Of a DNA stretch of 64,000 bases, positions 2,855 to 60,267 are shown piece after piece. This stretch comes from Deltaproteobacteria bacterium. Its GTDB lineage: Bacteria; Desulfobacterota; GWC2-55-46. Every line of letters begins with the position of its first letter. The first letter of the stretch is position 1. A program made the translations under genes and the position numbers. The stretch covers positions 276,589-340,588 of the forward strand of contig JACRNL010000010.1 of assembly GCA_016234935.1 (NCBI GenBank), in the 5' to 3' direction. Below the pieces are notes generated by a model that was given only the letters and a program-made list of their open reading frames with translations, did not search any database and was not told where the DNA came from.

Positions 2855-3148
2855 ATGGTTGGATATTCAACGTTAATGCCGGAGCTGTACGTCTTCATAC
2901 TTGCCGCATTCGTAGGCTATATGGTCATTACGCGGGTCCCTCCGCTCCTGCACACGCCGCTCATGTCGGCCACCAACGCGATTTCGGCCATATCGGTCGT
3001 AGGCGCGATATTGGTCGCCGGCAGCGCCAACAGCCTGGTAACAAAGATACTCGGCACCATTGCCGTGGCCGCGGCCATGTCAAACGTGGTTGGCGGATTC
3101 ATCCTCACCGACCGCATGCTTAAGATGTTTAAGAAGGAGAAACGTTAA
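2855..3148 (+). CDS. pntAB: NAD(P) transhydrogenase subunit alpha part 2 (membrane dII helices)
   Basis: 97-aa hydrophobic protein between pntAA and pntB. GGAGG RBS. Its stop overlaps the pntB ATG. Confidence 0.85.
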   Translation: MVGYSTLMPELYVFILAAFVGYMVITRVPPLLHTPLMSATNAISAISVVGAILVAGSANSLVTKILGTIAVAAAMSNVVGGFILTDRMLKMFKKEKR

Positions 3149-5172
3149 TGCTGCAAACATACTTCGTGGATGTTTCATACCTTGTAGCATCGGTTCTTTT
3201 CGTATTGTGCCTCAAGTTCCTGAACTCGCCTGAGACCGCCAGAAAGGGCGTCCTGCTCGGTGAAATAGGAATGGCCCTTGCCATCATAGGCACGCTTATC
3301 AACCATGAGATCATCACCTACGAGTGGATCATCATAGGCCTCTTTATCGGTTCCATCATAGGCATAGCCATAGCCGTATGGACGCCGATGACGCACATGC
3401 CCCAGCGGACGGCGCTTTCACACGCATTCGGCGCCCTGGCGGTGACCCTCGTCGGAATAGCGGAATTTTACAAACACGGCGCGGACCTCGGCACCATCAA
3501 GACCGCCGCGATAGGCTTTGAGTGCCTTCTCGGCGCGTTGACATTCACCGGCTCCATGCAGGCCTTTTTCAAACTGCAGGAGTGGATGCGCGGCGCGCCA
3601 ATCACCTTCAAGGGCCAGAACGCCCTGAATATGGCCATCCTTGCGGGCATGATCGGGCTTCTCGGCTACATCATCTACGACCCGACCGCTTCATGGGCCT
3701 TTTACCTGATGGTCGCCCTGGGCTTTGCCTTCGGCGTCCTCCTCGTCCTGCCGATAGGCGCGGCGGACATGCCGGTCGTTATTTCTCTTTTAAACTCCTA
3801 CGCGGGACTTGCCGGCTCCGCGACCGGATTCGTGCTTTCAAACAACGTCCTCATCATCGCCGGCGCGCTTGACGGGGCATCCGGAGTCATCCTTTCCATC
3901 ATCATGTGCAAGGCCATGAACAGGTCGATGGCCAACGTCCTTTTCGGCGCATTCGGCTCAAGCACGGCGGGAGCGGCGGCGCCCAAAGTGACTATGCCGT
4001 CTCCAGCCGCCGCATCAGCCGCTCAAGCAGCCCCAACAGGCCCGGTCATAAAGAAACTTACGCCTGAGCAGGCCGGTGGCCTTTTCAAGAACAGGTCCAA
4101 GTCCGTCATAGTCGTGCCCGGCTACGGCATGGCCGCCGCGCAGGCCCAGCACGCCGTCAGGGACCTCGGCGACCAGTTAAAGACCCTCGGCATATCCGTC
4201 AAATACGCCATACACCCCGTAGCGGGCAGGATGCCCGGCCACATGAACGTCCTTCTGGCCGAGGCTAACGTCCCATACACCGACCTCTTTGATATGGAGG
4301 ACATAAACGAGGAGTTCGAGCATACCGACGTAGCCCTTGTTATCGGCGCCAACGACGTCACGAACCCGGCGGCAAGGAACAACGAGCAGTCACCGATATA
4401 CGGTATGCCGATACTGAACGTGGACAAAGCCAGGACCGTCATCGTCTGCAAGCGCTCCATGAGCCCTGGCTTTGCCGGAATAGACAACGAGCTGTATCTC
4501 ATGCCGCAGACCTACATGCTCTTTGGCGACGCCAAGGGTTCCATCGGCAAGCTCGTTGACTCGATAAAGAGCGGCAACGTTGAAGACGTCCCGGTTGAAG
4601 CGCCCGCGGCGGCTGCCGTGACCGGCGGCGGCCCCGCCGTAAAACAGCTCAGCGCCGAACAGGCCTGCGAACTTTTCTCGAAGAAGGCCAAGCGCGTCAT
4701 CATAGTGCCCGGCTACGGCATGGCCGCGGCGCAGGCACAGCATGCGGTCAGGGACCTCGGCGATCTGCTCAAATCAATGGGCGTCAAGGTGAAGTACGCC
4801 ATCCACCCTGTCGCCGGCAGGATGCCCGGCCACATGAACGTACTTCTGGCCGAGGCCAACGTCCCCTACACCGACCTCTTTGACATGGAGGACATAAACG
4901 ACGAGTTCGGAGAAGCCGACGTGGCGCTCGTTGTCGGGGCAAACGACGTCACCAACCCGGCGGCGAAAACCAACCCGCAATCGCCCATCTACGGCATGCC
5001 CATACTCGACGTTGAGCTTGCAAAGACCGTCATCGTGTGCAAACGCTCCATGAAGCCCGGTTTCGCAGGCATTGACAACGACCTGTATCTGATGCCGCAG
5101 ACCTACATGTACTTCGGCGACGCAAAGACATCCATCGGCAAACTTGTTGACGCGATGAAGGCGGCAAAGTAG
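3148..5172 (+). CDS. pntB: NAD(P) transhydrogenase subunit beta with a tandemly duplicated C-terminal NADP(H)-binding dIII domain
   Basis: 674 aa against ~460 expected. The block VIVVPGYGMAAAQAQHAVRDLGD…YLMPQTYM.FGDAK.SIGKLVD occurs twice (aa ~300-470 and ~500-674), at ~85% nt identity between the two copies. Confidence 0.85.
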   Translation: MLQTYFVDVSYLVASVLFVLCLKFLNSPETARKGVLLGEIGMALAIIGTLINHEIITYEWIIIGLFIGSIIGIAIAVWTPMTHMPQRTALSHAFGALAVTLVGIAEFYKHGADLGTIKTAAIGFECLLGALTFTGSMQAFFKLQEWMRGAPITFKGQNALNMAILAGMIGLLGYIIYDPTASWAFYLMVALGFAFGVLLVLPIGAADMPVVISLLNSYAGLAGSATGFVLSNNVLIIAGALDGASGVILSIIMCKAMNRSMANVLFGAFGSSTAGAAAPKVTMPSPAAASAAQAAPTGPVIKKLTPEQAGGLFKNRSKSVIVVPGYGMAAAQAQHAVRDLGDQLKTLGISVKYAIHPVAGRMPGHMNVLLAEANVPYTDLFDMEDINEEFEHTDVALVIGANDVTNPAARNNEQSPIYGMPILNVDKARTVIVCKRSMSPGFAGIDNELYLMPQTYMLFGDAKGSIGKLVDSIKSGNVEDVPVEAPAAAAVTGGGPAVKQLSAEQACELFSKKAKRVIIVPGYGMAAAQAQHAVRDLGDLLKSMGVKVKYAIHPVAGRMPGHMNVLLAEANVPYTDLFDMEDINDEFGEADVALVVGANDVTNPAAKTNPQSPIYGMPILDVELAKTVIVCKRSMKPGFAGIDNDLYLMPQTYMYFGDAKTSIGKLVDAMKAAK

Positions 5173-11299: not shown

Positions 11300-11334
11300 A
11301 GGCATCCTTTCTGTTTTTCCATCAGGCCGCTCAA

Positions 11335-11480
11335 CGCAGCAAATGGGGCGCTTGAGGCAGCCTCTTAAGGGCAGGCTGCTCAAAAAGCCCCAGATGCAAG
11401 GAGTCGAGGAGTGAGGCGTGCTTTTTGGGCACGCCGCAGTGACGAATAACGAAGACAACGCCGCAGATGGGGCGCTTGAG
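11335..11480 (+). mobile_element. MITE-like ~125-bp TIR element, copy A, with an extra solo right-end fragment at its left
   Basis: AGGCTGCTCAAAAAGCCCC…GGCGTGCtttttggGCACGCC…GATGGGGCGCTTGAGGCAGCCT. It abuts the TAG stop of the RHH gene. Confidence 0.6.
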
Positions 11481-11488
11481 GCAGCCTG

Positions 11489-11698
11489 CTACGAAATCCT
11501 GCCCATCCTCGTCAGAAAGTCCCCCACGGCCACCCTGACCATCGCGCTTAGCGTCCATCTCTGTCCAAGCTTTTCCCTGTATTCAACAACAAGCGCCTTG
11601 AGGCTTTCGATCTGATCCTCTTCGAGCATCACGGTGAGCCTTTTCAACTCCTCGTGAGCGTCCTGCTTATGGGTTTTTTTCAGGGTCTTTTTAGCCAT
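11489..11698 (-). CDS. ribbon-helix-helix protein, ParD/CopG-like
   Basis: 69 aa with an RHH signature (…RLTVMLEEDQIESLKALVVEYREKLGQ…). Overlaps the LOG stop by 8 nt. Its stop codon is contiguous with MITE copy A. Confidence 0.55.
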   Translation of the reverse strand: MAKKTLKKTHKQDAHEELKRLTVMLEEDQIESLKALVVEYREKLGQRWTLSAMVRVAVGDFLTRMGRIS

Positions 11699-16554: not shown

Positions 16555-16650
16555 CCGGCACCACTTTGCGCTGCCAACGCCTGCCCTCGCATGTATGAAG
16601 CGGGGGTTTGTATTACGCATGAACTCTTAGCGACGGAAAGTGGTGCTGGG
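16555..16650 (+). repeat. hairpin-repeat family 2, copy 3 (CGGCACCACTTTGCG…CGGAAAGTGGTGCTGG), with a REP unit in its loop
   Basis: Inverted 13-15-nt arms. Lies ~19 nt upstream of the ppx start. Confidence 0.55.
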
Positions 16651-19850: not shown

Positions 19851-19990
19851 CGCAGCCCCGAAGGTGAAGGAGATTTGAGAGCGCGATATAATCACGCGCA
19901 TACTTAAAAACGTTTGAAAGACAGCTATAATTTACCGCATGCCGGACAATAAGGCAAATGCAGTTTGAAGCGTAAATATGATGCCCGCAC

Positions 19991-20112
19991 AGGCTGCTCA
20001 AAAAGCCACAGATACAAGGCGTCGAGAAGCAAGGAATGAGGCGTACGTTGTATGTACGCCGCAGTGACGAGCTACGAAGACAACGCGGTAGATGGGGCTT
20101 TTTCAGCAGCCT
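19991..20112 (+). mobile_element. MITE-like TIR element, copy B
   Basis: AGGCTGCTCAAAAAGCCAC…GGCGTACgttgtatGTACGCC…GATGGGGCTTTTTCAGCAGCCTG. Confidence 0.6.
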
Positions 20113-20185
20113 GTTAAAATTATTTGACTCTGAGGGGGATTCTGCCGCATTATATCTGAATAACGCAGAGGAACGGAGAGCGCAA

Positions 20186-20800
20186 ATGACAGACGCTTTG
20201 ATGACTGAACAAGACCTGAAGGACTACCTCACTGAAATCCTCATCTTCATGAATTCCTCCGCGGACTCTTTCGACAACAGGTGCGTGGGCGAGGCAAGAC
20301 GCCTTGCGGCGTGCATACGCATACTTGCCGAGGACACCGCCCAGTCGCGCTCGCTCCTCGGACAGCTCGGGCTTACAAACCTTTTTTTCTATGACGACGC
20401 GCCGGATTACAACCCTGAGCTGGGCCTTCCGTTCAGCGGCCTTGCCGTTGTGACGCTTGGAGGCAAGACACACAAGTACGCGGCCCGGCTTGACAACAAC
20501 GTCAGGTCAAAAACCCGGAAGGTCTCTTTTGACCAATGGTGGCATAAGCCCGTCATCGTGGACGAAAAGAGAAAGATGAGCCTTACGCGCCGAGACGTCA
20601 CGCTGGCCGTGGCAAGCGCGAATATCGGCGAGATAAACCCAAAGCTCACGGGGGCATTTGAAGAACTCCTGCGCAAGGAGTCGCGCGGCTGGATCACCGA
20701 TTCCACCGTTGTCCCGCTTGACATGATCGAGATCGAATACGCCAGCCTGAGGCAGATAGCCTTCGAGCTTTTGAACTCGCTCGAAGACCAGCTGAAGTAA
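20186..20800 (+). CDS. hypothetical protein (204 aa), no recognisable domain
   Basis: Start at MTDALMTEQ with a GGAGAG RBS. The ORF track begins 50 codons earlier inside MITE copy B. Flanked by MITE copies B and C. Confidence 0.5.
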   Translation: MTDALMTEQDLKDYLTEILIFMNSSADSFDNRCVGEARRLAACIRILAEDTAQSRSLLGQLGLTNLFFYDDAPDYNPELGLPFSGLAVVTLGGKTHKYAARLDNNVRSKTRKVSFDQWWHKPVIVDEKRKMSLTRRDVTLAVASANIGEINPKLTGAFEELLRKESRGWITDSTVVPLDMIEIEYASLRQIAFELLNSLEDQLK

Positions 20801-21190: not shown

Positions 21191-21215
21191 GGTTCCTCCT
21201 TGCTATCCGTAAAAC

Positions 21216-21297
21216 GTAGTGCGAGGCTTCAGCCTCGCTGTTTTTTTTGCGGTTCACTTGCCTGATTACAACAGGCGAGGCTGAAGCCTCGCACTAC
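21216..21297. repeat. inverted pair of GTAGTGCGAGGCTTCAGCCTCGC hairpin units (repeat family 3); left unit followed by T8
   Basis: ACGTAGTGCGAGGCTTCAGCCTCGCTGTTTTTTTT … GCGAGGCTGAAGCCTCGCACTACGT. Related units at ~53300-53395 and ~56696-56725. Confidence 0.5.
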
Positions 21298-21310
21298 GTA
21301 AAACAGAACG

Positions 21311-21457
21311 CGGCAGATGACGCGCTTGAGGCACAGGCTGCTCAAAAAGCCCCAGCTACTATGCGACGAGGAGCGAAGAACGAGGCGTAGTGTGTCCTAC
21401 GCCGCAGTGATGAGCGACGAAGGCAACGACGTAGATGGGGCTTTTTCAGCAGCCTGC
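21311..21457 (+). mobile_element. MITE-like TIR element, copy C, preceded by a partial right-end fragment
   Basis: …CAGGCTGCTCAAAAAGCCCCAG…GGCGTAGtgtgtcCTACGCC…GATGGGGCTTTTTCAGCAGCCTGCTCA. The napC-like TGA stop lies in the last 3 nt. Confidence 0.6.
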
Positions 21458-21961
21458 TCAGTGGAATATCCCCTGATGACAATCAACACAGGTAGCCTTG
21501 CCCTCGGCAAGGAGCGTCGCGTGCGCGGCCTTGCCGAATACTGAAGACGGCTTCGGGTCTTTGTGGCAGTCCCTGCACGGGGAGCTGTCCCAGCCCTTTA
21601 TCTGCTCCCTCGCCTTTCTTGCGAATTCGTCCTTATATTTGTCAAACTTCTCTTTCGTGCTTAAATCATGCGTGAAGCTGCTTACCACGTCCTTCATGCC
21701 GGTGACGACATGCACCTTTACCTTGCCGATGAAATCCGGCGGAAAGTGGCAATCGCGGCACTCAGGGTTTATCCCGCGCGAGCCCCAGTGCGCCGATTTC
21801 TTAAGCCCCTCGTAGGGATAGGTCATGGAGTGGCACGACATGCAAAATCCGGTCGAACTGAAAAACCTCTCGCCGCATATGAACGCGTAATTCAATGCCA
21901 GAGCGGCCACGGCGGTGATAACGACGAGCCTCCAGTTCTCAAGCAAGATCCTCTTTAGCAT
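21458..21961 (-). CDS. NapC/NirT/CymA-family membrane tetrahaem cytochrome c (quinol dehydrogenase)
   Basis: Four CxxCH motifs (CMSCH, CRDCH, CRDCH, CVDCH) and an N-terminal TM helix. Confidence 0.85.
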   Translation of the reverse strand: MLKRILLENWRLVVITAVAALALNYAFICGERFFSSTGFCMSCHSMTYPYEGLKKSAHWGSRGINPECRDCHFPPDFIGKVKVHVVTGMKDVVSSFTHDLSTKEKFDKYKDEFARKAREQIKGWDSSPCRDCHKDPKPSSVFGKAAHATLLAEGKATCVDCHQGIFH

Positions 21962-29480: not shown

Positions 29481-29577
29481 GCCTGCCCTTTGAAAGGGTT
29501 CAACCCTCCCCAGCGCCACTTTCCGGCGCCGACATTTTTATTAGATACATATGCTGATAACGGAAAGTGGCGCTGGG
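29481..29577 (+). repeat. REP unit plus hairpin-repeat family 2 copy 1 (CCAGCGCCACTTTCCG-[AT-rich 33 nt]-CGGAAAGTGGCGCTGG)
   Basis: Lies directly upstream of the gnd start. Near-identical copy at 30813-30908. Confidence 0.6.
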
Positions 29578-29712
29578 CTGCCCATCCCATGAAGAGGATT
29601 TAAAAACAACGTAAAATTCCGCAAAGCTCAATTGATTAATAGCTTAAAGATAGCAGAGAAGGCGAGGAAAGGCAACTGCGCAAGGACGTTTTCCCGCCCT
29701 CGGCGCATGGGA

Positions 29713-30735
29713 TTAAAATTGCAGATTAGGCCTGAGGATGATCTGGAAGTTGTCGCGATTTTCCCTATCCTCAAGAACGCCCGTGTATTTTAACGCACCC
29801 TCCCAGATAAAGCCCACGGCCATGGAAAAGGCAATCTTTTTTTCATTGTAAGGCCACTTCTTGTCGACCGTGAAGTAGTGCCGCACTGGTTTTAACGTCC
29901 TGTTATCCATGTCAAAGATATATTCAAAGCCGGCGTTCTTAAAAAAGGTGTCGGGCGAACCCTCATAGTCCACAAAGCTCCTTCTGAGCGCTATGTAAAT
30001 GACGTCCTTTATGTCACGGTTCGAATGGAGCTTTTCCCCCACGCGAAAGCTCCAGCTAAGCGTATGGGTGGGGAACTTCCTGTCCCCCTTAATCTTCCAC
30101 TCCAGCTCTACCGAACTGTCCTTGATGAGCCTGTTGTCCTTTATGTGCTGGTCGCCTATGCTGACGAGATACCCCATGTAGCCGAAGTTGCCGCTCCTGT
30201 GCTTTTCGCCGGGGCTCGTGAAACTGACGACGTTGCCCATGAAAAACGAAAGGGCATAGGGCTCTTCAAAGCCTGCGGTCACGGCCTTTATCAGGTTGAG
30301 GTTGTCTGAGACCTTCGCGCCCCTGTATACGTCATTCGCGTTGCTTCTGGCGGCAACGCCCGCGACAGGCATGGGGAATACCGCCGCTTCAACGACAAGA
30401 TATCTGGGGATGTAGGAGCTTAAAAACAGGTCTCTGTATATCTGAAACTCAGGCTTTGTGCCTGCGTCTGGAATCGGCTGGTCGGTGAGATTTACGATAA
30501 TCGAGGCGTTAGTGTAATACGGGTCAAGCTCGTATTCAAAACTATAACCCTTTTCTTCCTTGCCGGCCGTCACGGCCTTTTCCTGCCCTCGCGTGTTTAA
30601 AGCGGGGGTCTGAGGCATTGCCTCATCTTTTGAGACTAAAACAGCCTCCTGGGCGTAGGCGCACGGCTGTCCAACGCACACGAGGACAAAAAGCGAAACC
30701 GCACAAAGAATCCTGCAATGGAAAGAATCCCTCAT
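29713..30735 (-). CDS. hypothetical outer-membrane protein (signal peptide, C-terminal …LRPNLQF beta-barrel signature)
   Basis: Start at MRDSFHCRILCAVSLFVLVCVGQPCAYA. Terminal aromatic residue typical of OMPs. Confidence 0.45.
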   Translation of the reverse strand: MRDSFHCRILCAVSLFVLVCVGQPCAYAQEAVLVSKDEAMPQTPALNTRGQEKAVTAGKEEKGYSFEYELDPYYTNASIIVNLTDQPIPDAGTKPEFQIYRDLFLSSYIPRYLVVEAAVFPMPVAGVAARSNANDVYRGAKVSDNLNLIKAVTAGFEEPYALSFFMGNVVSFTSPGEKHRSGNFGYMGYLVSIGDQHIKDNRLIKDSSVELEWKIKGDRKFPTHTLSWSFRVGEKLHSNRDIKDVIYIALRRSFVDYEGSPDTFFKNAGFEYIFDMDNRTLKPVRHYFTVDKKWPYNEKKIAFSMAVGFIWEGALKYTGVLEDRENRDNFQIILRPNLQF

Positions 30736-30812
30736 GATGTAACGAATTCTCTCCGCCAGACCTGTGTGATAAATCATACCGCCTAAAGGGCCAGCCATAA
30801 CTGCCTCTCAAG

Positions 30813-31015
30813 CCTGCCCTTTGAAAGGGTTCAGCCCTCCCAAGCGCCACTTTCCGGCGCCAACATTTTTATTAGATACATATGCTGATAACGGAAAGTG
30901 GCGCCGGGCTGCCCTCGCATGTCCCCCGCTTAAAACCCCCGCTTTAGACCTGCGAGGGCAGGCGTGCGGGGGTTGAACCCCTTCAAGGGGCAGGCTGAAG
31001 CGGGGGTTTAAAACC
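30813..31015 (+). repeat. cluster of REP-like units (CCTGCCCTCGCATG / CCCCCGCTTAAAA / GGGTTGAACCCCTTCAAGGGG) plus family-2 hairpin copy 2
   Basis: Direct reading shows several inverted GC palindromes without the regular spacing of a CRISPR array. Confidence 0.6.
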
Positions 31016-31707: not shown

Positions 31708-32115
31708 ACGAAATTCCTCCTTACTAAGGTTTTTTATTCTCAAGCTGTGTATATATCGCGGATGACGCCACATGCATATTATAGCTGATTTATAGCATGA
31801 GGCCGGATTTCACACAGTGACTAAAGCTACCAAACGAATTTAATTTTCCTGCAAGGGGATTTTCACGCCTGCCCTCGCGTGTCCCCCGATAGAAACATTC
31901 GAGGGCAAGCTAAAGCGGGGGGTGGAATAAATCCCGCGAAATTGCCGCCCGGACATTGCCGGGCCGGTCATGAGACGCGAAAAACCTGAACTTTAACAGA
32001 CCTTGACAAACCTTGACCTGCTGATATTCTTTGAATAGTCAGCATCCCGCGCCATACAGCCCGGCACACCCCCTTGCCCCCACGACCAAATACACCGGAC
32101 AGACAAACGGTAAAT

Positions 32116-35494: not shown

Positions 35495-37336
35495 ATGTTT
35501 CTGCCGACGACAAAAGAGGAGATCGAGGGGCTTGGCTGGAAGGGCCTCGATATAATACTGGTAACGGGCGACAGTTATATTGACTCGCCCTACGTCGGAG
35601 TGGCCGTAATCGGAAAGATCCTCCTTGACTCCGGGTACAAGGTCGGAGTTATCGGTCAACCGGAAACAAGTTCTGACGTCGACATCAGGCGCCTCGGCGA
35701 GCCTCGGCTCTTCTGGGGCGTTACGGGCGGCTGCATCGACTCCATGGTCGCCAACCGCACGGCTACAGGCCGCAGACGTAACCGCGACGACTATACCCCC
35801 GGCGGCGTAAACAACCGGCGTCCTGACAGGGCCGCCATCGCCTACACCAATCTCATCAAAAGATATTATAAAAAAGATACCCGCCCTATTGTCCTGGGAG
35901 GTATCGAAGCAAGTCTGCGCCGGACAGCCCATTATGATTTCTGGACAGACACTATAAGAAGGTCAATCCTCTTTGACACGAAAGCCGATTATCTTCTTTA
36001 TGGGATGGCGGAGCGCTCCGCTGTCGAACTCGCCGGATGTATAAAGGACGGGAAAGACCCCCGGAGTGTGCGCGGACTTTGCTATATCTCCAAAGATATT
36101 CCTGATGGCTGTCTGGAACTCCCTTCATTCCAGGAATCTGCGCAGGACAAGGACGCTTTCACAAGGTCATTCCACACAGTCTACAATAACAACGATCCGG
36201 CGACGGCCGTGGCATTGGCTCAAAGACAGGACACCCGTTATCTCATCCAGAACCCTCCGGCGCCCTATCTCTCTCAGAAGGAACTTGACAGGGTATACGG
36301 CCTGGGATATGAACGGGACGCTCACCCCTACCACCGTAAGGATGGCGAGGTAAAGGTCCTTGAGACGATCCGCTTCTCCATTTCCTCGCACCGCGGATGT
36401 TACGGTGAATGCAGTTTTTGCGCCATCGCCGTCCATGAAGGCCGCCGCGTGAGGAGCAGAAGCAAGGCCTCTATCCTTGCCGAGGCAAAGGAGATGACGC
36501 GGCACCCCCTTTTCAAGGGAAGGATAAATGATGTGGGCGGGCCATCGGCCAATATGTACGGCACAGGTTGTGAGAGGATGGAAAAACAGGGCTGCTGCCC
36601 GAAAAAGAGCTGCATCTCCCCGCAAGTCTGTCCCAGGCTCAATTTTGGCCACGCAGAGCAGTTATCGCTCCTTAAGGCGCTGCGCGGCGTCGATGGAGTC
36701 CAAAAGGTTGTCGTTGCGTCGGGACTGAGACACGACCTGGTACTGGCGGATAAAAACGAGGGAGAGCGGTACCTTAAGGAGCTTGTCCTCCACCACGTCT
36801 CCGGACAGATGAAGATAGCCCCCGAACACTCGGAGGCAAGCGTGCTTCGGCAGATGGGCAAGCCTAACTGCGACCAGAACGCCCTTATAAAGTTCAAGGA
36901 GCTCTTTTACAAATTTACGAAGGAGGCAGGGTTGAGCCAGTTTTTAACCTACTACCTGATGGCCGCCCATCCCGGCTGCGGCGAGGACGATATGGCAAGG
37001 CTGAGGTCATTTGCTTTGAAAGAGCTGGGCAGACTGCCGGAGCAGGTACAGGTATTTACGCCCACCCCGTCGACATATTCCACCCTGAGCTACTGGACCG
37101 GGTGCGACCCCTTTACCGGCAAGCCCTGTTTTGTGGAAAAGAGCGCCAGAGGCAGGGAAGCGCAGAAGTCCATACTAACAGGCCCATGTATCAAGAAAGA
37201 GAAGAAAGAAGCGTTTGACCCTAAAAGGTTGCTGAAAAACTCAAAATTTGTTCAGGCTCTCAAATCTTCCCATTGCAATAATAAGGACGCAATGGGAACC
37301 CAGCCAGATGCGAGGCGTCGAGGAAGCGACGAATGA
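35495..37336 (+). CDS. ygiQ: YgiQ-family radical SAM protein (UPF0313)
   Basis: MFLPTTKEEIEGLGWKGLDIILVTGDSYIDSPY… matches the YgiQ N-terminal domain. CYGECSFC is a Cx3Cx2C motif. The last ~12 codons (…TQPDARRRGSDE*) are supplied by MITE copy D. Confidence 0.85.
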   Translation: MFLPTTKEEIEGLGWKGLDIILVTGDSYIDSPYVGVAVIGKILLDSGYKVGVIGQPETSSDVDIRRLGEPRLFWGVTGGCIDSMVANRTATGRRRNRDDYTPGGVNNRRPDRAAIAYTNLIKRYYKKDTRPIVLGGIEASLRRTAHYDFWTDTIRRSILFDTKADYLLYGMAERSAVELAGCIKDGKDPRSVRGLCYISKDIPDGCLELPSFQESAQDKDAFTRSFHTVYNNNDPATAVALAQRQDTRYLIQNPPAPYLSQKELDRVYGLGYERDAHPYHRKDGEVKVLETIRFSISSHRGCYGECSFCAIAVHEGRRVRSRSKASILAEAKEMTRHPLFKGRINDVGGPSANMYGTGCERMEKQGCCPKKSCISPQVCPRLNFGHAEQLSLLKALRGVDGVQKVVVASGLRHDLVLADKNEGERYLKELVLHHVSGQMKIAPEHSEASVLRQMGKPNCDQNALIKFKELFYKFTKEAGLSQFLTYYLMAAHPGCGEDDMARLRSFALKELGRLPEQVQVFTPTPSTYSTLSYWTGCDPFTGKPCFVEKSARGREAQKSILTGPCIKKEKKEAFDPKRLLKNSKFVQALKSSHCNNKDAMGTQPDARRRGSDE

Positions 37337-37413
37337 GGCGCACTTTGTTGTGCGCCGTTCGTTCCGAGTGACGACGACAACGAAGCAGATGGGCGTTTTT
37401 CAGCAGCCTGCTG
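37300..37413 (+). mobile_element. MITE-like element, copy D (left TIR missing)
   Basis: …CCAGATGCGAGGCGTCGAGGAAGCGACGAATGAGGCGCACtttgttgGTGCGCC…GATGGGCGTTTTTCAGCAGCCTG. Confidence 0.55.
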
Positions 37414-37478
37414 AAAGACATGTCCTTAAAAGGGCCCAATTCAGGGTAAAGGGGAGATAAAACAAGAGGACGGCATCT

Positions 37479-46287: not shown

Positions 46288-46336
46288 CACCCCCACCCTG
46301 CCCTCCCCCGTGGAGGGGGATGAGAAATGGAAGGGG
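46288..46336. repeat. G-rich 50-nt leader motif CACCCTGCCCTCCCCCGTGGAGGGGGATGAGAAATGGAAGGGGTCAT, second copy at 56520-56570
   Basis: Two near-identical copies, each in the 5' leader of a minus-strand gene (the FGE-like gene and yebC). Confidence 0.45.
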
Positions 46337-46456
46337 TCATTTGCCTGTTCCGGACAACTTTTAAACCCGCACCCCCCGCATTCAACGAACCTTAAAAAAA
46401 GCGGGCCGCGCAAGCCGGCAAGCCCCGGTGAGCCGGACTTGGCAATTATACCTTGA

Positions 46457-51075: not shown

Positions 51076-52284
51076 TCAGCAGACAGGGTGCTCTCCCCTT
51101 GAAAGCTCGCCTGTGAACGCGCCGAGGCCGGACATGAACTCTTCAATTATCAATGCAACGGCTTTGCCGGCGGTCTTTTTGTTAAAACGCCTTCCCTGTA
51201 TTATCTTTACATATATCCTCTTTGGCCTGTCAATGGGCGAGCCTATCTGGCTTAAAAGCCACACATAAACTTCCCTTATGCCGTCTACGCGCTCATAGAG
51301 CTCCGCCGCCATGCGGTGAGAAAGGACTGTGTAAATCTTGCCCACGTGGCTGACCGGGTTTTTTCCTGCGGCCGCCTCCGTGCCCATGGGCCTGTTAAGG
51401 GAGATGACGCCGTTCACCCTGTTTCCCCTGCCGACCTCGCCGGAATCAGCGTCCTCGGCGGACGTGCCTGTCAGCGTCAGATAGACCCCGCTTGCGCCGA
51501 TTCCTTTTTTGTCAAGGGCATTGAAATTAACCGTGACCTTTTTGAAAGGCGTCTCATTAAGGAACACGGCAAGCGCGGATTTTACGGCGGCCTTTCTTTG
51601 AAAATATTCCTTCTCATTCCTTACAAGAGACGCGTAAAGAGGGCAGGCGACGGTTATGTCAAGGCCCTTGCCTGTCCGTATGCCCATCACCTTCACGTCC
51701 TCCCCGCTTTCAGGGAAGCGGAGCTTGAAGGCCGGGGAGTTCAAAAACCTTTCCGTTTCAAAGACCGTCTTTTCAGTTGTGGTAAGCGGGGCATAACCCA
51801 CAGACGCCGACGTGTCGTTCGCGCCAAGGAGTCTGCCTTTCCTGTTGAATATCGCCGTAAGCTCCGCGGAGCCGGGCGCAAGGGCGATGCGCGTTCTTAA
51901 ACTTTTATCTATGTCAACGTGCCGGAGATTTTCCTTGAACCAGCCGCCAACGGCGTCGTTGACTATCTCCTCAACGGGTATTTTTACCCTGCCGGCCTTG
52001 AAAACAGCCCTGTCGCCGATGGTGAACTCCATTGGCCTTACCACCCTGCCGCCGCCGAAACCTTTTTTCACGGATCCGGCTGATAAAAGCCCCTTGTCTA
52101 TGTTGTGGTGCAGGACGCGCCCGAACCTCTTTATGTATTCCCTGCTCAGGGCAACGGAAATCCTGTCCGTCACCGCGTCACAGATATAGTCCGGGTGGCC
52201 GACGCCCTTTCTCTCGACTATCTCGACCGCGCAGTCGCTGATTGGAAGGTCATTTACAACTTCTATCGTCAGCCTTTGCGCCAT
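51076..52284 (-). CDS. archaeal-type S-adenosylmethionine synthetase (MAT, PF01941)
   Basis: ERKGVGHPDYICDAV…ANDTSASVGYAPLTTTEKTVFETERFLNS…YLTLTGTSAEDADSGEVGRGNRVNGVISLNRPMGTEAAAGKNPVSHVGKIY aligns block-for-block with M. jannaschii MAT as I recall it. Start at MAQRL with an AGAAGG RBS contributed by the MITE E flank. Confidence 0.85.
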   Translation of the reverse strand: MAQRLTIEVVNDLPISDCAVEIVERKGVGHPDYICDAVTDRISVALSREYIKRFGRVLHHNIDKGLLSAGSVKKGFGGGRVVRPMEFTIGDRAVFKAGRVKIPVEEIVNDAVGGWFKENLRHVDIDKSLRTRIALAPGSAELTAIFNRKGRLLGANDTSASVGYAPLTTTEKTVFETERFLNSPAFKLRFPESGEDVKVMGIRTGKGLDITVACPLYASLVRNEKEYFQRKAAVKSALAVFLNETPFKKVTVNFNALDKKGIGASGVYLTLTGTSAEDADSGEVGRGNRVNGVISLNRPMGTEAAAGKNPVSHVGKIYTVLSHRMAAELYERVDGIREVYVWLLSQIGSPIDRPKRIYVKIIQGRRFNKKTAGKAVALIIEEFMSGLGAFTGELSRGEHPVC

Positions 52285-52298
52285 TAGCCGCCTTCTTA

Positions 52299-52433
52299 GC
52301 AGACTGCTGAAAAAGCCCCATCTACCGCGTTGTCTTCGTCGTTCGTCACTGCGGCGCACCCAAAAGTGCGCCTCACTCCTCACTCCTCGACGCCTTGTGT
52401 CTGGGGCTTTTTGAGCAGCCTGCCGGTTTCAGC
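52299..52433 (-). mobile_element. MITE-like TIR element, copy E (inverted orientation)
   Basis: The reverse complement matches the consensus, with hairpin GGCGCACttttggGTGCGCC. Lies between the MAT start and the queH 3' end. Confidence 0.6.
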
Positions 52434-52999
52434 AACCTCTTAGAGTATCTTTCTATTTTACTGTAAATACAGCCGCAATACTTCTGCCTGTAAAGCCCCA
52501 TCTCCTTTGACGCGTCTATGCCTGCCTGCCAACCGCCGCGGTAGTCCGCGTAGAAAAAAGGAATGCCATACTTCCGGGAAAGTGTAAGCCCAATGGCCTT
52601 TATCCCGTCATGGTTCTGGTATCTGCTGTATAAAAGGGAAGAAGAAAAACCGTCAAAACCGTTTGCGAGGGCCGTCTTCGCGGTCTCCTCAAGCCTTGAT
52701 GAGTAGCAATAGCCGCAGCGGCCGTCTTTCTCGGGAAGGCCTTTTTTTCCGCTAAATTTTGCGGCTTCCTTAACGCCTTTTATAAAGGCCGTCGGCCTAT
52801 ACACCTCGTCGAATATGACGTTTACGCCAAGAAGCGCAGCGAGCCTTTTTGCCGCATCAAGCCTTTTTTTGAATTCGGAAAACGGATGGATGTTCGGATT
52901 ATGAAAAAACCCCCAGACGTCAGGCCGAGAGGCGCCGTGGCCGTGGCCGAGCATGGCCTTAATCGGAATGATGGAACACGGCCCGCAGCACATATGCAC
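52373..52999 (-). CDS. queH: epoxyqueuosine reductase QueH (DUF208)
   Basis: …LVHMCCGPCS…FFHNPNIHPFSEF…LYRQKYCGCIYS… are QueH motifs. Start uncertain (GTG/ATG near HMCC), since the upstream ORF-track residues lie in a REP repeat. The last ~20 codons and the stop lie inside MITE copy E. Confidence 0.7.
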   Translation of the reverse strand: MHMCCGPCSIIPIKAMLGHGHGASRPDVWGFFHNPNIHPFSEFKKRLDAAKRLAALLGVNVIFDEVYRPTAFIKGVKEAAKFSGKKGLPEKDGRCGYCYSSRLEETAKTALANGFDGFSSSLLYSRYQNHDGIKAIGLTLSRKYGIPFFYADYRGGWQAGIDASKEMGLYRQKYCGCIYSKIERYSKRLLKPAGCSKSPRHKASRSEE

Positions 53000-53019
53000 A
53001 AGGACGCGGCCCGCCCCCG

Positions 53020-53095
53020 CTTCAGCCTGCCCTCGCGTGTTTTTAGCGGGGGACACGCGAGGGTTGAACCCTTTCAAAGGGCAGGCAAAGACGAC
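53020..53095. repeat. REP-like units (GCCTGCCCTCGCGTG…AGCGGGGGACACGCGAGGGTTGAACCCTTTCAAAGGGCAGGC)
   Basis: Same palindrome family as at 975-1040, 17775-17830, 30905-31015, 31860-31925 and 43335-43385. Confidence 0.55.
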
Positions 53096-53401
53096 TCCGC
53101 CCGTGTTATCCGCGTTGGCCGGTCCTGACAGCGGCGTTATTATGGAAAGGTCTTTATTCACCGTAAAAACGCACCCGTAAAACGACGGCACGCATGTATT
53201 AACATTAGCTCAGAAATCCGTGATTGTATAGCCACATCCGGTAAAAGCAACTTAAAATTTTTAACGGGAAGATTCCAGCCTGACAAGCCGTTTATGGTTT
53301 ATCGTCCCCGTAGTGCGACACTTCAGTGTCGCCTTGTCGTTGAAACAACAGCTCGGTAGAAGCCTCGCACTACAATCTTTCTAATAACCGGCAAGCCGCC
53401 T

Positions 53402-56504: not shown

Positions 56505-56818
56505 CCTCGCCCCCTGCCGCCCCCACCCTGCCCTCCCCCGTAAAGGGGGAGGATAAATGGAAGTGACCATCTCCCGCCGCGCAACTGCCGGAAATATCAT
56601 TAATATTTCAAACATCAGATACATAACACAAAACAGGCGAATTTGCAATTTGCAAATTCGCCTGCGCAAGGTTTTCAAGACGGCTGTCAGCAAAACTCGC
56701 AAGGCGAGGCTGAAGCCTCGCACTACATTCATGGAATTGTGTCATTCCCCTTTTAAAAAAAAGCGGGGACAATTACCGCGTGTGAACATCTTCATAATTC
56801 CCTGAAGGGAATGCCGCT

Positions 56819-57250: not shown

Positions 57251-58630
57251 CTAAGCGTTTTTAATCGGCTGCTTGATTCCAAGCGACTTCATTTTCATAA
57301 GAAGGGTGTTCCTGTGGATATTGAGATGCCTTGCGGCCTTTGACTTGTTCCAGTTGGTCTTATTCAATACCTCGACGATGTAATGCCTCTCAAAGCAGAT
57401 CAGGGCCTCATGGAAGTCCTTTGCCTCGTCGATGGAACCGCGCTTTATTCCGGGGCAGAACATATTGACAGGCAGGTCTTTGTAGGTAATGCCGGCGCCG
57501 TCTCTGGCTATGACTACAAGCCTTTCCATGAGGTTTTCAAGCTCCCTTACGTTGCCAGGCCATTCATATTCACAGAGCGCGTCCATCGCATCCTTTGCAA
57601 TGCCTTTGATGGCCTTCCTGCATTTCGCGCAGTGCTTTTTAAGAAAGTGCTCGGCAAGAAGGGGGATGTCCTCTTTCCTCTCGCGAAGCGGAGGAAGCTC
57701 TATGGGCACGACCTTCAGCCTGTAATAGAGGTCTTCCCTGAACCTGCCCTTTTTGACCTCCTGTTCAAGGTCGACGTTCGTCGCGGCAATAACCCTTATG
57801 TCGACCTTTATAGGCACGTTGCCGCCTACCCGTTCAAAGGTCTTCTCCTGCAAGGCGCGAAGGAGCTTTATCTGAAGGTGCATGGGAAGGGTAGCCACCT
57901 CGTCGAAAAATATGGTGCCGCCGTCCGCGTATTCGAACTTGCCGATCTTCCTTGCTATGGCCCCGGTGAAGGCCCCCCTTTCATGGCCGAACAGCTCGCT
58001 TTCCATTAATTCCGACGGGACCGCTCCGCAGTTGACGGCGACAAAAGGCTTGTCCTTCCTTTCGCCCATCGAATAAATGGCCCTTGCGACAAGTTCTTTG
58101 CCGGTTCCGCTTTCGCCGGTTATCAGGACGTTGGAAGAGGTTTTTATGACCGATTCGATGTGCTCCAGCACCTCTTTCATCTTGGGCGAAGCGCTGAGTA
58201 TCTCGCCGTAATACGTGAACTCCTTGAACATCTCTTCCTTAAGGTAGTCCACCTCGTTTTTAAGGTTCACCCTGTCCACATACCTTTTCAGGGTCATCAG
58301 AAGATCATCGCTGTCAAAGGGCTTGGTAACGTAGTCATACGCGCCCTTTTTCAAGGCGGAGACCGCGGTCTTCGCGTTGTCGCTGGCGGAAAGCATGATC
58401 ACGCCGGCTTCGCCGTCAATGGATTTTATCTTTTCAAGCGTTTTAAGCCCGTCCATGCCGGGCAGGTTTACGTCCATCAGGATGATGTCAAAGTGCCTTG
58501 CGCGCACGGCTTCGAGCGACTCGGCGCCGTCCTTTGCGGCGCATATCTCGTAGACGTCCTTTAAAATAAGCTCAAGGCTTTTCCTGACGGAACTATCATC
58601 GTCTACTATCAAAACGGCAAGTTTTTTCAT
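57251..58630 (-). CDS. sigma-54-dependent response regulator (REC-AAA+-Fis HTH, NtrC family)
   Basis: MKKLAVLIVDDD…, GESGTGKELVARAIY, GAFTGA, and a C-terminal HTH. An alternative start lies 19 codons upstream. Confidence 0.85.
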   Translation of the reverse strand: MKKLAVLIVDDDSSVRKSLELILKDVYEICAAKDGAESLEAVRARHFDIILMDVNLPGMDGLKTLEKIKSIDGEAGVIMLSASDNAKTAVSALKKGAYDYVTKPFDSDDLLMTLKRYVDRVNLKNEVDYLKEEMFKEFTYYGEILSASPKMKEVLEHIESVIKTSSNVLITGESGTGKELVARAIYSMGERKDKPFVAVNCGAVPSELMESELFGHERGAFTGAIARKIGKFEYADGGTIFFDEVATLPMHLQIKLLRALQEKTFERVGGNVPIKVDIRVIAATNVDLEQEVKKGRFREDLYYRLKVVPIELPPLRERKEDIPLLAEHFLKKHCAKCRKAIKGIAKDAMDALCEYEWPGNVRELENLMERLVVIARDGAGITYKDLPVNMFCPGIKRGSIDEAKDFHEALICFERHYIVEVLNKTNWNKSKAARHLNIHRNTLLMKMKSLGIKQPIKNA

Positions 58631-58758
58631 TGTGCGCCCGCTGCTCCCGTATTTTCGCTGCATGTCTTTGAGACCTATCGTCATTGATAAACCCCCTGGC
58701 GGGCAATACAAAAACAACACGCATTATTTATTGTAAATAAACAGTTTAACTATTGTGC

Positions 58759-58896: not shown

Positions 58897-60267
58897 TTAC
58901 GTCAACTCTTCGTTTTCTATTCCGTAGCTTTTTATCTTCCTGTAAAGGTGGCTCCTTTCAAGCCCTATGGCCTCCGCCGTCTTTGCGATATTGCCGCCGT
59001 GCTCCCTGAGCTTCCTTAGGATAAACTCCCTTTCAAAATCCCTTCTGGCCTCCTTTATGAGCGCGCTTTTAAAGACGTTGCCGATGGGATGAGCCGACTG
59101 CGCGCCGCGGATGTAAGGCGGGACGTCGTCCGGCATGATAACGTTAGTGGGCGTCATTATGACAAGACGCTCGATGATGTTTTTAAGCTCCCTGACGTTG
59201 CCCGGCCAGCCGTATTTCATCAGTATCCGGACGGCCTCCGGACTTATCGTGAACGCATCCCTTGACGTCTCGCGCGAGAACTCCTTTAAAAAATAGTCGA
59301 TAAAAAGAGGAATATCCTCAGCCCTCTCGCGCAGGGGCGGCACCGCGAACGGGATGACGTTAAGCCGGTAGTATAGGTCCTCCCTGAACGCGCCTTTTAT
59401 TATCTCTTCCCTCAGGTTCTTGTTCGTCGCCGCGATGACCCTTACGTCCACGCTTACGCGCTCGGTCCCGCCCACGCGTTCAAATGTCTGCTCCTGAAGT
59501 ATGCGCAGGACCTTTGCCTGCGTCTTGAGGCTCATGTCGCCAATCTCGTCAAGAAAGATGGTGCCCTTGTCCGCGAGGTCGAACTTGCCCTTCTTCTGCG
59601 CCGCGGCGCCTGTGAAGGCCCCCTTTTCATGGCCGAACAGCTCGCTCTCGATAAGCTCCTCCGGAATGGCGGCGCAGTTGACTTCGACAAAGGGCCTGCC
59701 GCTCCTCAGGGAAAGAAGGTGGATGTTCCTTGCCACGAACTCCTTGCCTGTCCCGTTCTCTCCGGTGATGAGGGCCGTTGAATTGGACGGCGCGGCGCGC
59801 CTTATGGCGCCCACCATGTCTTCAACGGCCTTTGTCTTTCCGATTATTTCATACCTTGCGAGAGCCTTTGCGCGCAGCTCGTTGTTTTCCTCGACAAGAC
59901 GCTTTTGCTCAAGGGCGTGCTCCACGGTGAGTATTACCTTGTCAAGGGAGAGGGGCTTTTCGATGAAGTCATAAGCGCCGAGCTTGGTGGCCTTCACGGC
60001 GGTCTCGATGTTGGCGTGCCCTGAGATCATTATGACCGGCAGGGCGGGGTATTTTTTCTTTATCTCCTTAAGCGCGTCAATGCCGTCCATGCCCGGCAGC
60101 CAGATGTCAAGCAGGACTATCTCAGGGATGCGGCTGTCTAACTTTTTAAGCGCCTCCTCCGCCGAGCCTGCGCTCGCGACCGCATAACCCTCGTCCCTGA
60201 AGACGCCGCCGAGCGCCTCTCTTATGTCTATCTCATCGTCAACTACCATTATATTTTTCACTGTCAA
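58897..60267 (-). CDS. ntrX: sigma-54-dependent response regulator NtrX-like
   Basis: MTVKNIMVVDDEIDIRE…, GENGTGKEFVARNIH, GAFTGA, C-terminal HTH. Immediately downstream of ntrY. Confidence 0.85.
   Translation of the reverse strand: MTVKNIMVVDDEIDIREALGGVFRDEGYAVASAGSAEEALKKLDSRIPEIVLLDIWLPGMDGIDALKEIKKKYPALPVIMISGHANIETAVKATKLGAYDFIEKPLSLDKVILTVEHALEQKRLVEENNELRAKALARYEIIGKTKAVEDMVGAIRRAAPSNSTALITGENGTGKEFVARNIHLLSLRSGRPFVEVNCAAIPEELIESELFGHEKGAFTGAAAQKKGKFDLADKGTIFLDEIGDMSLKTQAKVLRILQEQTFERVGGTERVSVDVRVIAATNKNLREEIIKGAFREDLYYRLNVIPFAVPPLRERAEDIPLFIDYFLKEFSRETSRDAFTISPEAVRILMKYGWPGNVRELKNIIERLVIMTPTNVIMPDDVPPYIRGAQSAHPIGNVFKSALIKEARRDFEREFILRKLREHGGNIAKTAEAIGLERSHLYRKIKSYGIENEELT

Follow-up and report, generated by a model that had tools for sequence, protein, structure and literature searches.

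Five copies (A to E) of a MITE were detected in the 64-kb window, by which the whole stretch of DNA analysed here is meant. The copies are multicopy, non-coding and 124-186 nt in length, and their 18-nt end motif was matched eight times in the window, against 0.16 matches expected from shuffled sequence. Copies A and C abut an RHH-like gene and a NapC/NirT-like cytochrome gene, respectively, copy B lies beside tilS, and copies D and E are located in ygiQ and queH.

In a full copy of about 150 nt, the outer left end (CAGGTTGCTGAAAAAC) is separated by about 12 nt from a long imperfect palindrome, the right arm of which is closed by the right end GGGGCTTTTTCAGCAGCCTG. Upon insertion, a 4-bp YTAR target (CTAA, CTAG, TTAG or TTAA) is duplicated. 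Perfect YTAR duplications were found in seven pairs, around copy E and around copies in L043, L091, L012, L026, L022 and L005, and YTAR was present at 15 of 27 right flanks, against 0.4 expected. A 7-bp duplication (CTAAAAG/CTGAAAG, CTAAGAG/CTAAGAA) was dropped in favour of 4 bp, because the outer end CAGGTTGCTG adjoins YTAR directly in other genomes.

Copy A (11323..11488, + strand; nhmmer match) is a composite of 166 nt, in which an additional right-end-like piece (GGGGCGCTTGAGGCAGCC, 11345-11362) is placed between the outer left end (CAGGCCGCTCAACGCAGC) and the core. Its outer boundary is common to the relative L147, reading GAGCGGCCTG followed by ATGG in the window and GAGCGGTCTG followed by ATAG in L147. 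The right end of the copy abuts the 4-bp flank CTAC, which contains the native TAG stop (11489-11491) of a small RHH-like gene (11489..11698, - strand). The earlier note had regarded this stop as donated by the element; the two do adjoin, but all RHH homologues terminate at the same residue, which identifies the TAG as native and as the former target site. An element end also follows directly after the RHH TAG in both L146 and L147. Copy B (core, 19990..20113, + strand; nhmmer match) occupies the divergent intergenic region between tilS and the gene at 20186-20800 and has the right flank TTAA (20114-20117). Copy C (core, 21334..21456, + strand; nhmmer match) carries a right-end-like remnant at about 21302-21333, and its right flank, CTCA (21457-21460), is not YTAR. 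As proposed before, the stop of the NapC/NirT-like gene (21458..21961, - strand) adjoins the end of this copy, the TGA being situated within the 4-bp flank, and it is possibly a native target site. At the last residue of the NapC-like protein, the Pfam match has come to position 169 of the 174 in the profile; in distant relatives the last haem motif is followed by anything between 4 and over 30 residues. For an empty site of copy C, a metagenome scan with the NapC-like protein gave only relatives of 31-34% identity. Copies A, B and C are without a clear outer left end or matching duplications. A right-end-like piece of the GCGCTTGAGGCA variant is present in the left halves of all three; when all fetched loci were searched, neither this variant of the end nor a tandem junction of right end and left end turned up outside the window.

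Insertion of copies D and E into ygiQ and queH

Copy D (37225..37410, + strand; 186 nt) was matched by nhmmer and is missing from the orthologous ygiQ loci L120 and L118. In terms of element structure, it comprises on the + strand the outer left end AAGGTTGCTGAAAAAC (37225-37240), the inner left repeat CAGGCTCTCAAA (from 37253), a subfamily hairpin (37269-37296) and the right end GTTTTTCAGCAGCCTG (up to 37410); the central hairpin of the copy is GGCGCAC...GTGCGCC. Its left 128 nt showed 90.6% identity to a copy in another MAG (L012). A start at about 37290 had been assumed before, which left out the outer left end and had to be corrected to 37225; the boundaries of E, which has an outer left end as well, had likewise been set too narrowly. 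The left target-site duplication, CTAA (37221..37224, + strand), corresponds to the empty site CCCTAAAAGACATGG in L120, and its right partner, CTGA (37411-37414), has one mismatch to CTAA, so it is not YTAR. The chimeric ygiQ (35495..37336, + strand; Pfam Radical_SAM_N) encodes 613 aa and is identical to the public protein P0001. Its last 35 or so residues (LLKNSKFVQALKSSHCNNKDAMGTQPDARRRGSDE) and its TGA stop (37334-37336) are encoded by copy D; the stop internal to the element had been recognised, but only eight residues of the tail had been attributed to it. Based on the orthologous loci, D was inserted within the coding region, 14 codons upstream of the native stop. The orphaned native 3' end (…HVLKRAQFRVKGR*; 37415..37460, + strand) aligns to the 3' ends of L120 and L118 and is brought back in frame by in-silico excision of D, giving 591 aa, the length of P0006.

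Copy E (52300..52439, - strand; 140 nt), which has lost part of its outer left end (GAGGTTGCTGAAA followed by CCG), is flanked by perfect CTAA duplications (52440-52443 and 52296-52299) and is missing from the orthologous queH-MAT locus L123. The chimeric queH (52373..52993, - strand) is publicly annotated with 206 aa (P0121, 100% identical), and the Pfam QueH domain stops at residue 246 of the 272-aa ORF. About 20 residues at its C-terminus (LLKPAGCSKSPRHKASRSEE), together with the TGA stop (52373-52375), are encoded by copy E. Orthologous loci place the insertion point within queH, again 14 codons upstream of the native stop. The orphaned native 3' end (…KAANGAKADDRSCK*; 52250..52295, - strand) matches L123 and overlaps the start codon of MAT, and excision of E in silico gives a 199-aa QueH with an orthologue-like C-terminus. 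MAT (51076..52284, - strand) encodes an archaeal-type S-adenosylmethionine synthetase (Pfam AdoMet_Synthase, E = 4.5e-150). In the uninterrupted locus L123, queH and MAT share 35 nt, and this overlapping pair is uncoupled by the insertion of E. The MAT start codon lies 15 nt past the right end of E, the distance given in the earlier note, but the ribosome-binding site is not supplied by the element as had been suggested: AAGAAGG sits in the orphaned queH 3' end and is native, since it is also found in the uninterrupted orthologous locus.

Both ygiQ and queH enter the left end of the element in the same frame (AGG TTG CTG AAA = RLLK). Owing to indels the two tails are out of register mid-way, and their last three codons (SDE*/SEE*) with the homologous element TGA are common to both. 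The claim that queH runs into the same end of the element and stops at the homologous TGA was retained, but with 20 element-encoded residues in place of seven. Neither copy sits exactly at a gene end, as had been stated; both are inserted in coding sequence. As anticipated, comparison with uninterrupted loci provided the native C-termini and target duplications for ygiQ and queH, and excision restored orthologue-like ends. Filled and empty orthologous sites for ygiQ (L120, L118) and queH-MAT (L123) record past mobility; the view of the repeats as MITE-like mobile elements was upheld by the empty sites and the target duplications. The mobility of the element, its boundaries, its target duplication, the related autonomous insertion sequences and the chimeric tails can be regarded as established.

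After an insertion into a gene tail, as in ygiQ and queH, the reading frame continues within the element up to the first stop codon that it meets; an element tail takes the place of the native one, the coding remnant of which stays downstream. The public YgiQ (613 aa) and QueH (206 aa) records from this MAG carry transposon-derived C-terminal tails, and the ancestral ends of both genes are now found in 'intergenic' DNA. Such chimeras are taken in silently by annotation pipelines and family alignments.

Relation to IS5-type insertion sequences and other small repeats

The repeats are very probably non-autonomous MITEs that are moved in trans by a DDE transposase belonging to the ISAzs10-like group of the IS5 family. 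Their ends, CAGGCTGCTGAAAAAGCC, recur without change in insertion sequences of about 1.3 kb that carry a transposase, in Rhodopila and Planctomycetota MAGs. The related autonomous insertion sequences are 1269-1391 bp long, have the same 18-19 nt ends with CTAA, TTAG or CTAG duplications, and encode a transposase with the domains DUF772 and DDE_Tnp_1. This transposase scored 261.9 bits on the NCBIfam model NF033581 (IS5 family; cut-off 140) and showed 69% identity to an annotated ISAzs10-family transposase. A copy of ISAzs10 itself reads CAGGCCGCGGAAAAAGG…CCTTTTTCCGCGTCCTG between two TTAG sites, and YTAR is the target reported for IS5 (PMC5009759). The MITE shares with the ISAzs10-like insertion sequences the ends (those of ISAzs10, CAGGCCGCGGAAAAAGG, being close to CAGGCTGCTGAAAAAGCC) and the 4-bp YTAR duplication. 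Unlike them, it has no transposase and measures 124-186 nt, and its interior consists of a long palindrome, which looks like the right arm folded back, together with a second, outer left end, a layout not present in the autonomous insertion sequences. No ISAzs10-like transposase as partner could be found by tblastn in the 64-kb window (of the 354-kb contig) or in the fetched deltaproteobacterial loci.

The same ends are carried by relatives in MAGs of Deltaproteobacteria/Thermodesulfobacteriota, Nitrospirota, Binatia, Omnitrophota, Eisenbacteria and Acidobacteriota, and the shared end motif could serve to find or mask small repeats across several bacterial phyla. A full-text literature search for the end sequences gave no relevant paper; the MITE family is apparently undescribed so far, while the kind of element is already known.

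Correia elements, with which the repeats had been compared, show a general resemblance: they are small, have inverted-repeat ends, are scattered beside genes, can overlap the ends of ORFs and form long RNA hairpins, and a role in termination and in mRNA processing has been suggested for them. To our knowledge, they are restricted to Neisseria and have no link to an IS5 transposase. Correia elements (CREE/NEMIS) are known generally, and also from PMC10969869, to duplicate TA and to have 26-bp inverted repeats of their own. Membership in that family was rejected, as the present element has a 4-bp YTAR duplication and the IS5-type ends CAGGYTGCTGAAAAA, in contrast to TA and Correia ends.

In Coxiella burnetii, QMITE1 and QMITE2 are described as inserted at the 3' end in every functional gene affected, with C-terminal overlaps of 1-50 bp, and 33 C-terminal residues of EnhC in the Dugway strain are derived from a QMITE (the portion of PMC5896051 drawn on here). 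These elements belong to another sequence family and another host, and their duplications are of a different length (direct repeats of 7-9 bp in QMITE2); orphaned native 3' ends, unlike in ygiQ and queH, are not reported in that portion of the account. The insertion of a MITE at a gene end is a well-known kind of event and not a new mechanism. Dispersed small repeats folding like intrinsic terminators (the relevant parts of PMC10969869 and PMC3184786) are similar in that fold, but they are unrelated in sequence and no transposase partner is mentioned in those parts, whereas the U-tract here belongs to an IS5-type end. Chunjie of Geobacter was ruled out as a relative by its 9-bp direct repeats. 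In-frame insertion of the Rickettsia palindromic element type was rejected as well, both host frames stopping in the element with their native 3' ends orphaned. REP/BIME are short extragenic palindromes without inverted-repeat ends or target duplication and are tied to a RAYT gene; this RAYT-mobilised type was excluded by the inverted-repeat ends and 4-bp duplications of the present element and by its two intragenic copies.

It is very improbable that the repeats are non-mobile and lie downstream of genes by chance, either as a gene for a conserved structured RNA or as a REP-like extragenic palindrome. They do contain a stable, conserved hairpin, and a permissive Rfam scan gave a weak match to Yfr1 within E (26 bits, below the gathering score of 38), which was taken as chance; at the gathering threshold no Rfam family was matched in the whole window. 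Against a non-mobile origin stand the target duplications around the repeats, ends shared exactly with insertion sequences that carry a transposase and the location of two copies within coding sequence, and it is effectively refuted by the clean empty sites in the orthologues of ygiQ and queH-MAT.

Position at gene ends

Four of the five copies are located at stop codons or in the last 20 codons, in agreement with the clustering at gene 3' ends noted before; two interrupt the final 14 codons of a gene, and at least one falls on a stop codon. In genomes other than this one, long open frames stop within the duplication (L043, L078, L035) or at an element-end TGA (L078, L083). This enrichment refers to a sample of five copies in the window and about 11 elsewhere, with mechanically called ORFs. 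As YTAR holds TAA or TAG on both strands, many true stop codons would be targets, and the stop would be regenerated by insertion. YTAR may also be met out of frame in the Lys/Arg-rich codons of gene tails, e.g. CCT-AAA-AG and TCT-AAG-AA. Insertions elsewhere in genes would be purged by selection, with survivors at stops and in dispensable C-terminal tails.

The window contains 342 YTAR sites, 8 of them on stop codons, 15 in the last 20 codons and 79 in intergenic DNA. A preference for YTAR alone, or an extra preference for A/G-rich or terminator-proximal DNA, could place the copies at gene ends without selection, and the intragenic targets of D and E do have the context CTAA(A/G)A(G/A) in common. 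The position of four out of five copies at 3' ends is also unexpected even in relation to intergenic YTAR (79 sites versus 23 at stops or in the last 20 codons; binomial p of about 0.01). Coding interiors hold 74% of the YTAR sites and none of these is occupied, for which selection is required; the small sample of copies also counts against an explanation by target preference alone, which is unlikely. We infer that selection is the cause of the 3'-end bias. The window offers an unusually clean case in which YTAR targeting and purifying selection concentrate MITEs on stops and dispensable basic tails. Its significance is modest, and the current understanding of MITEs is left unchanged by these copies.

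Hairpin, U-tract and transcription termination

The U-tract and GGGGC of the GGGGCUUUUU motif belong to the ends of the autonomous insertion sequences as well. Judged from sequence, the motif is inherited from the transposase-binding end and a terminator function of the elements is plausible, but the presence of a U-tract is by itself no evidence of selection for termination because it belongs to the transposase-recognised end. The occurrence of GGGGCTTTTT at both ends, as described before, applies to B, C and E, but not to the right ends of D (GGGCGTTTTT) and of A (GGGGCGCTTGAGG, without T-tract). Any effect of the elements on RNA is one that we infer.

The elements might instead be mobile bidirectional intrinsic terminators, similar to Correia and SPRITE, for which there are precedents (PMC10969869), and be kept for supplying stops, tails, terminators and a ribosome-binding site. 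Folding of whole elements gave hairpins of -55 to -77 kcal/mol with z-scores of -5 to -6.7, and the palindrome is retained in divergent copies, several pairs occurring with 3-6 pair types. The geometry of a bidirectional terminator is also recognisable, with U5 after a GC-rich stem base at most ends and an A5 tract on the opposite arm, and a consensus terminator scan flagged one element end, the left end of E. That scan covered all copies and missed nearly all ends; as it accepts loops of 3-8 nt only, it argues neither for nor against termination. The GGGGC stem base and U5 belong, however, to a hairpin that spans the whole element (about 120 nt, with an irregular interior of about 90 nt), and the U-tract pairs with the A-tract. 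U-tract and GGGGC are explained as the end sequence of the autonomous elements without selection for termination, and the right end of A has no U-tract at all. Copy E lies 15 nt upstream of MAT, which is presumably co-transcribed with queH (the genes overlap in a relative); an efficient terminator at E would silence the presumably essential MAT, which counts against a terminator role. No promoter-like site was found near E by a consensus promoter scan, and neither the RHH stop nor the MAT ribosome-binding site is supplied by an element. On balance, the maintenance of the elements as terminators is conceivable but doubtful.

Rather improbable is the more far-reaching proposal that a pan-phylum lineage of IS5-type MITEs acts as a self-propagating, stop-codon-seeking, bidirectional terminator module. 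In that case, YTAR would steer the element onto TAA/TAG, and the whole-length palindrome, maintained by compensatory changes, would be under selection for terminating or insulating transcription in both directions. The suggestion that the duplicated left end permits alternative pairings with the U-tract arm is similarly improbable. For an IS5-type MITE mobilised in trans, the reading preferred here, the hairpin and U-tract would be by-products of two complementary transposase-binding ends, which may attenuate transcription.

Repeat family and its relationship to IS5-type elements

A palindromic repeat of ~125 nt is present in five copies in the window, with first-pass extents of 11371-11490 (A), 19988-20115 (B), 21332-21458 (C), 37304-37412 (D) and 52298-52423 (E, inverted). 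The copies have in common an 18-nt end motif, CAGGCTGCTSAAAAAGCC, for which eight matches with at most three mismatches were found in the window versus a mean of 0.16 in dinucleotide-preserving shuffles, so the repeat family claimed in the earlier note is real. The observation made there was largely correct; its interpretation was partly right and required three corrections, concerning the element boundaries, the intragenic position of D and E, and the native origin of the RHH stop codon and the MAT ribosome-binding site.

Copies elsewhere were identified by a genome scan followed by nhmmer, and their flanks were compared. Units of 1269-1391 bp carry the same 18-mer at each end, are flanked by CTAA, TTAG or CTAG and encode a protein of 360 aa in which DUF772 and DDE_Tnp_1 domains were recognised and which scores 261.9 bits against the NCBIfam model NF033581 'IS5 family transposase' (cut-off 140). 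This protein is 69% identical to the annotated 'IS5-like element ISAzs10 family transposase' of an Azospirillum plasmid, where the ISAzs10 copy runs from CAGGCCGCGGAAAAAGG… to …CCTTTTTCCGCGTCCTG between two TTAG flanks. The 4-bp target YTAR is also duplicated by IS5 itself (PMC5009759). Because their ends and YTAR flanks are common to these transposase-encoding units, the window repeats can be assigned, by sequence, as MITEs of an ISAzs10-like IS5-family lineage. No transposase was found in the 64-kb window.

Full relatives of the window element were found by nhmmer in Nitrospira, Binatia, Omnitrophota, Syntrophales and Eisenbacteria MAGs, and the same end motif bounds small repeats with other interiors in Acidobacteriota, Bryobacteraceae, Nitrospirota and Binatia MAGs. 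Such repeats, with terminal CAGGCTGCTGAAAAAGCC, include L010/L016/L108 (fetched loci of an Acidobacteriota MAG), L019/L033/L114 (Bryobacteraceae), L008/L048/L088/L100 (Nitrospirota) and L004/L052/L077/L084 (Binatia and others), and in many cases a contig ends ~100 nt away. The pattern points to a broad MITE superfamily tied to ISAzs10-like IS5 transposases, which also breaks assemblies. A full-text literature search found no paper containing the element end sequences. The window element is apparently a so far undescribed IS5-family MITE, while the kinds of effect it has on adjacent genes are known ones. The resemblance to Correia elements suggested in the earlier note holds for behaviour, both being small, with inverted-repeat ends, ORF-end overlap and hairpin RNA. 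Correia elements are defined by a TA duplication and their own inverted repeats, and the window element has neither. Among known elements, QMITE1/2 of Coxiella (PMC5896051) come closest as regards 3'-end overlaps and a C-terminus encoded by a MITE, and SPRITE offers a parallel for terminator-like repeats (PMC10969869); Chunjie of Geobacter, with 9-bp repeats, differs from the window element.

The full element consists, in order, of a 4-bp YTAR flank, the outer left end CAGGTTGCTGAAAAAC, a spacer of ~12 nt, the inner repeat CAGGCTGCTCAAAAAGCCCC, a core, the right end GGGGCTTTTTCAGCAGCCTG and the identical 4-bp flank. Perfect target duplications were seen at L043 and L005 (CTAG), L091, L012 and L026 (CTAA), L022 (TTAG) and window copy E (CTAA); copy D has CTAA and CTGA. 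Over all copies compared, YTAR was present at 15 of 27 right flanks, with 0.4 expected. The boundaries first drawn were too narrow, and the revised extents are 37225-37410 for D and 52300-52439 for E. The D start previously placed at 37290 was ~65 nt too far right: a copy from another MAG matches the first 128 nt of D, in which a subfamily-specific hairpin lies, at 90.6% identity.

Copies A, B and C are without the canonical outer left end and instead carry a right-end-like piece in direct orientation upstream of the inner repeat (…AACGCNGCARATGGGGCGCTTGAGGCA). This end variant, GGGGCGCTTGAGGCAGCC, is without the T-tract, occurs at three sites in the window (11345-11362, 11469-11486 and 21318-21333) and gave no matches in ~145 fetched loci. 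The odd left halves could possibly have arisen by recombination between copies, or else represent a mini-element beside a full element with a common TTAA; in A, the extra left piece duplicates that copy's own unusual right end.

Insertions in ygiQ and queH

Pfam analysis identified 35495-37336 as a YgiQ-type radical SAM protein. Its closest homologues (83-88% identity) have 580-598 aa and a short basic tail such as …DPKRHGLKKTHFRGRGR, while the window protein has 613 aa and departs from them past …DPKR. The orthologous loci L120 and L118 align to the window DNA on both sides of one 190-column gap, and the native 3' coding end ACATGTCCTTAAAAGGGCCCAATTCAGGGTAAAGGGGAGATAA persists at 37418-37460, downstream of D. 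In the ORF 52373-53191, the Pfam QueH domain ends 26 residues short of the stop; homologues terminate in …IER(Y/F)SKK plus a short tail, as in P0123 (83% identity; …SKKKAVNGAKADDRSRG). In L123, the contig of P0123, the end of queH and the start of MAT have 35 nt in common, and the window aligns on both sides of a single 141-column gap. In-silico excision of the element with one duplication copy restored a 591-aa YgiQ ending in …DPKRHVLKRAQFRVKGR and a 199-aa QueH ending in …YSKKAANGAKADDRSCK; therefore D and E each entered their gene 14 codons ahead of its native stop. Rather than sitting exactly at gene ends, as was proposed, they lie within genes and have left the native ends orphaned.

The element-encoded tails were recognised in the earlier note, as was their ending at the same homologous element TGA, but their lengths were understated: they comprise 35 residues in ygiQ (LLKNSKFVQALKSSHCNNKDAMGTQPDARRRGSDE) and 20 in queH (LLKPAGCSKSPRHKASRSEE). 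The frame of entry into the element is identical in the two genes, the outer left end AGG TTG CTG AAA being read as RLLK, and the tails lose register mid-element because of extra sequence in D and a deletion in E. The archaeal-type SAM synthetase (MAT; Pfam PF01941) is encoded at 51076-52284, with a counterpart at 783-1724 of L123. Its ribosome-binding site, AAGAAGG, attributed previously to E, is already present in the uninterrupted locus, where it reads as native queH coding sequence.

Stop codons and positions at gene ends

The small 'RHH' gene had no Pfam match. All its homologues end at one residue, …FLTRMGK(I/L/M)(S/A/T), so the TAG, which lies within the 4-bp flank (CTAC on the + strand), is native; it was the target and not donated by the element. 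In the relatives L146 and L147 an element end directly follows the same TAG, and L147 and the window have in common the far boundary, next to the ribosome-binding site of the downstream gene. By this comparison, the site is read as an ancestral insertion onto a stop codon, with the outer boundary of A at 11323. The TGA of the napC-like gene (21458-21961, NapC/NirT-type cytochrome by Pfam) lies within the C flank CTCA; no close relative was found when an empty site for C was sought, and distant ones have variable tails. Among the copies in other genomes, long open frames run up to the TAG within the duplication (L043, L078, L035) or to the TGA that lies 8 nt into the element, in its end …GCTGAAAAA (L078, L083), so the element can by sequence donate a stop codon, though not at RHH.

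With mechanical gene calls, 342 YTAR sites were located in the window: 254 in coding interiors (15 of them in the last 20 codons), 79 intergenic and 8 on stop codons. Four of the five copies lie on a stop or inside the last 14 codons, and none deeper in genes. The simplest account would be that the target itself contains TAA/TAG and that selection then removes disruptive insertions. The native YgiQ and QueH tails, in which D and E landed, are basic, variable in sequence and evidently dispensable, and out-of-frame CTAA occurs in them because their Lys/Arg codons create it. An extra local preference of the transposase may also shape the bias towards gene ends.

Hairpins, putative termination and other repeats

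Each copy is predicted to fold end to end into a single long hairpin (-55 to -77 kcal/mol, z-scores -5 to -6.7), and pairing is preserved in 20 divergent copies, with three to six pair types at several positions. The copies could possibly act as intrinsic terminators. However, the U-tract after the GGGGC stem base is itself base-paired to the A-tract in the opposite arm, the terminator 'loop' is an irregular helix of ~90 nt, and a simple terminator scan flagged a single end, one of E's. GGGGC plus T5 belongs to the ends of the autonomous insertion sequences and so needs no selection for termination; it is absent from the right end of A. An efficient terminator at E would also be costly, as E separates queH from MAT and, given their overlap in the relative, the two genes are presumably co-transcribed. 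A scan found no promoter-like site near E. Putative termination at the copies is thus probably leaky, at least in the queH to MAT orientation of E. Within E, 52354-52410 (+) matched the Rfam model of Yfr1, a cyanobacterial sRNA, below threshold (26 bits versus a gathering threshold of 38, E = 0.0015); this match is driven by CUCACUCCUCAC between two hairpins and probably due to chance.

Several other repeats were observed. The interval separating copy C from the start of the AsnC-type gene holds an inverted pair, with the arm GTAAAACGTAGTGCGAGGCTTCAGCCTCGC… at 21209-21242 and the complementary arm at 21270-21304. Both arms contain a perfect 7-bp hairpin; the first arm, which precedes a T8 run, has a terminator-like score on both strands. 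The pair may be a further small palindromic element or may serve as a bidirectional terminator. A second dispersed family (…GCCTGCCCTCGCGTGTTTWAAGCGGGGG…), REP-like in appearance and unrelated to the MITE, occurs in both orientations at 979-1032, 16560-16606, 30562-30608, 30923-30976, 31872-31921 and 53006-53063. The two copies of a third repeat (CCCCCACCCTGCCCTCCCCCGTGGAGGGGGA…; 46290-46345 and 56520-56575) are 84% identical, and a similar G/C-rich hairpin is found at ~720-790 of L147, in the element after the RHH gene. Direct repeats of 103 nt (29481-29583 and 30812-30914, 96% identity), partly self-complementary, lie on either side of the gene 29713-30798, and the gene 3148-5172 contains an internal 300-nt repeat (4039-4338 and 4630-4929, 79% identity). 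Two adjacent genes, 57251-58720 and 58897-60267, share a 162-nt repeat (57899-58060 and 59545-59706, 76% identity) and are likely paralogues.
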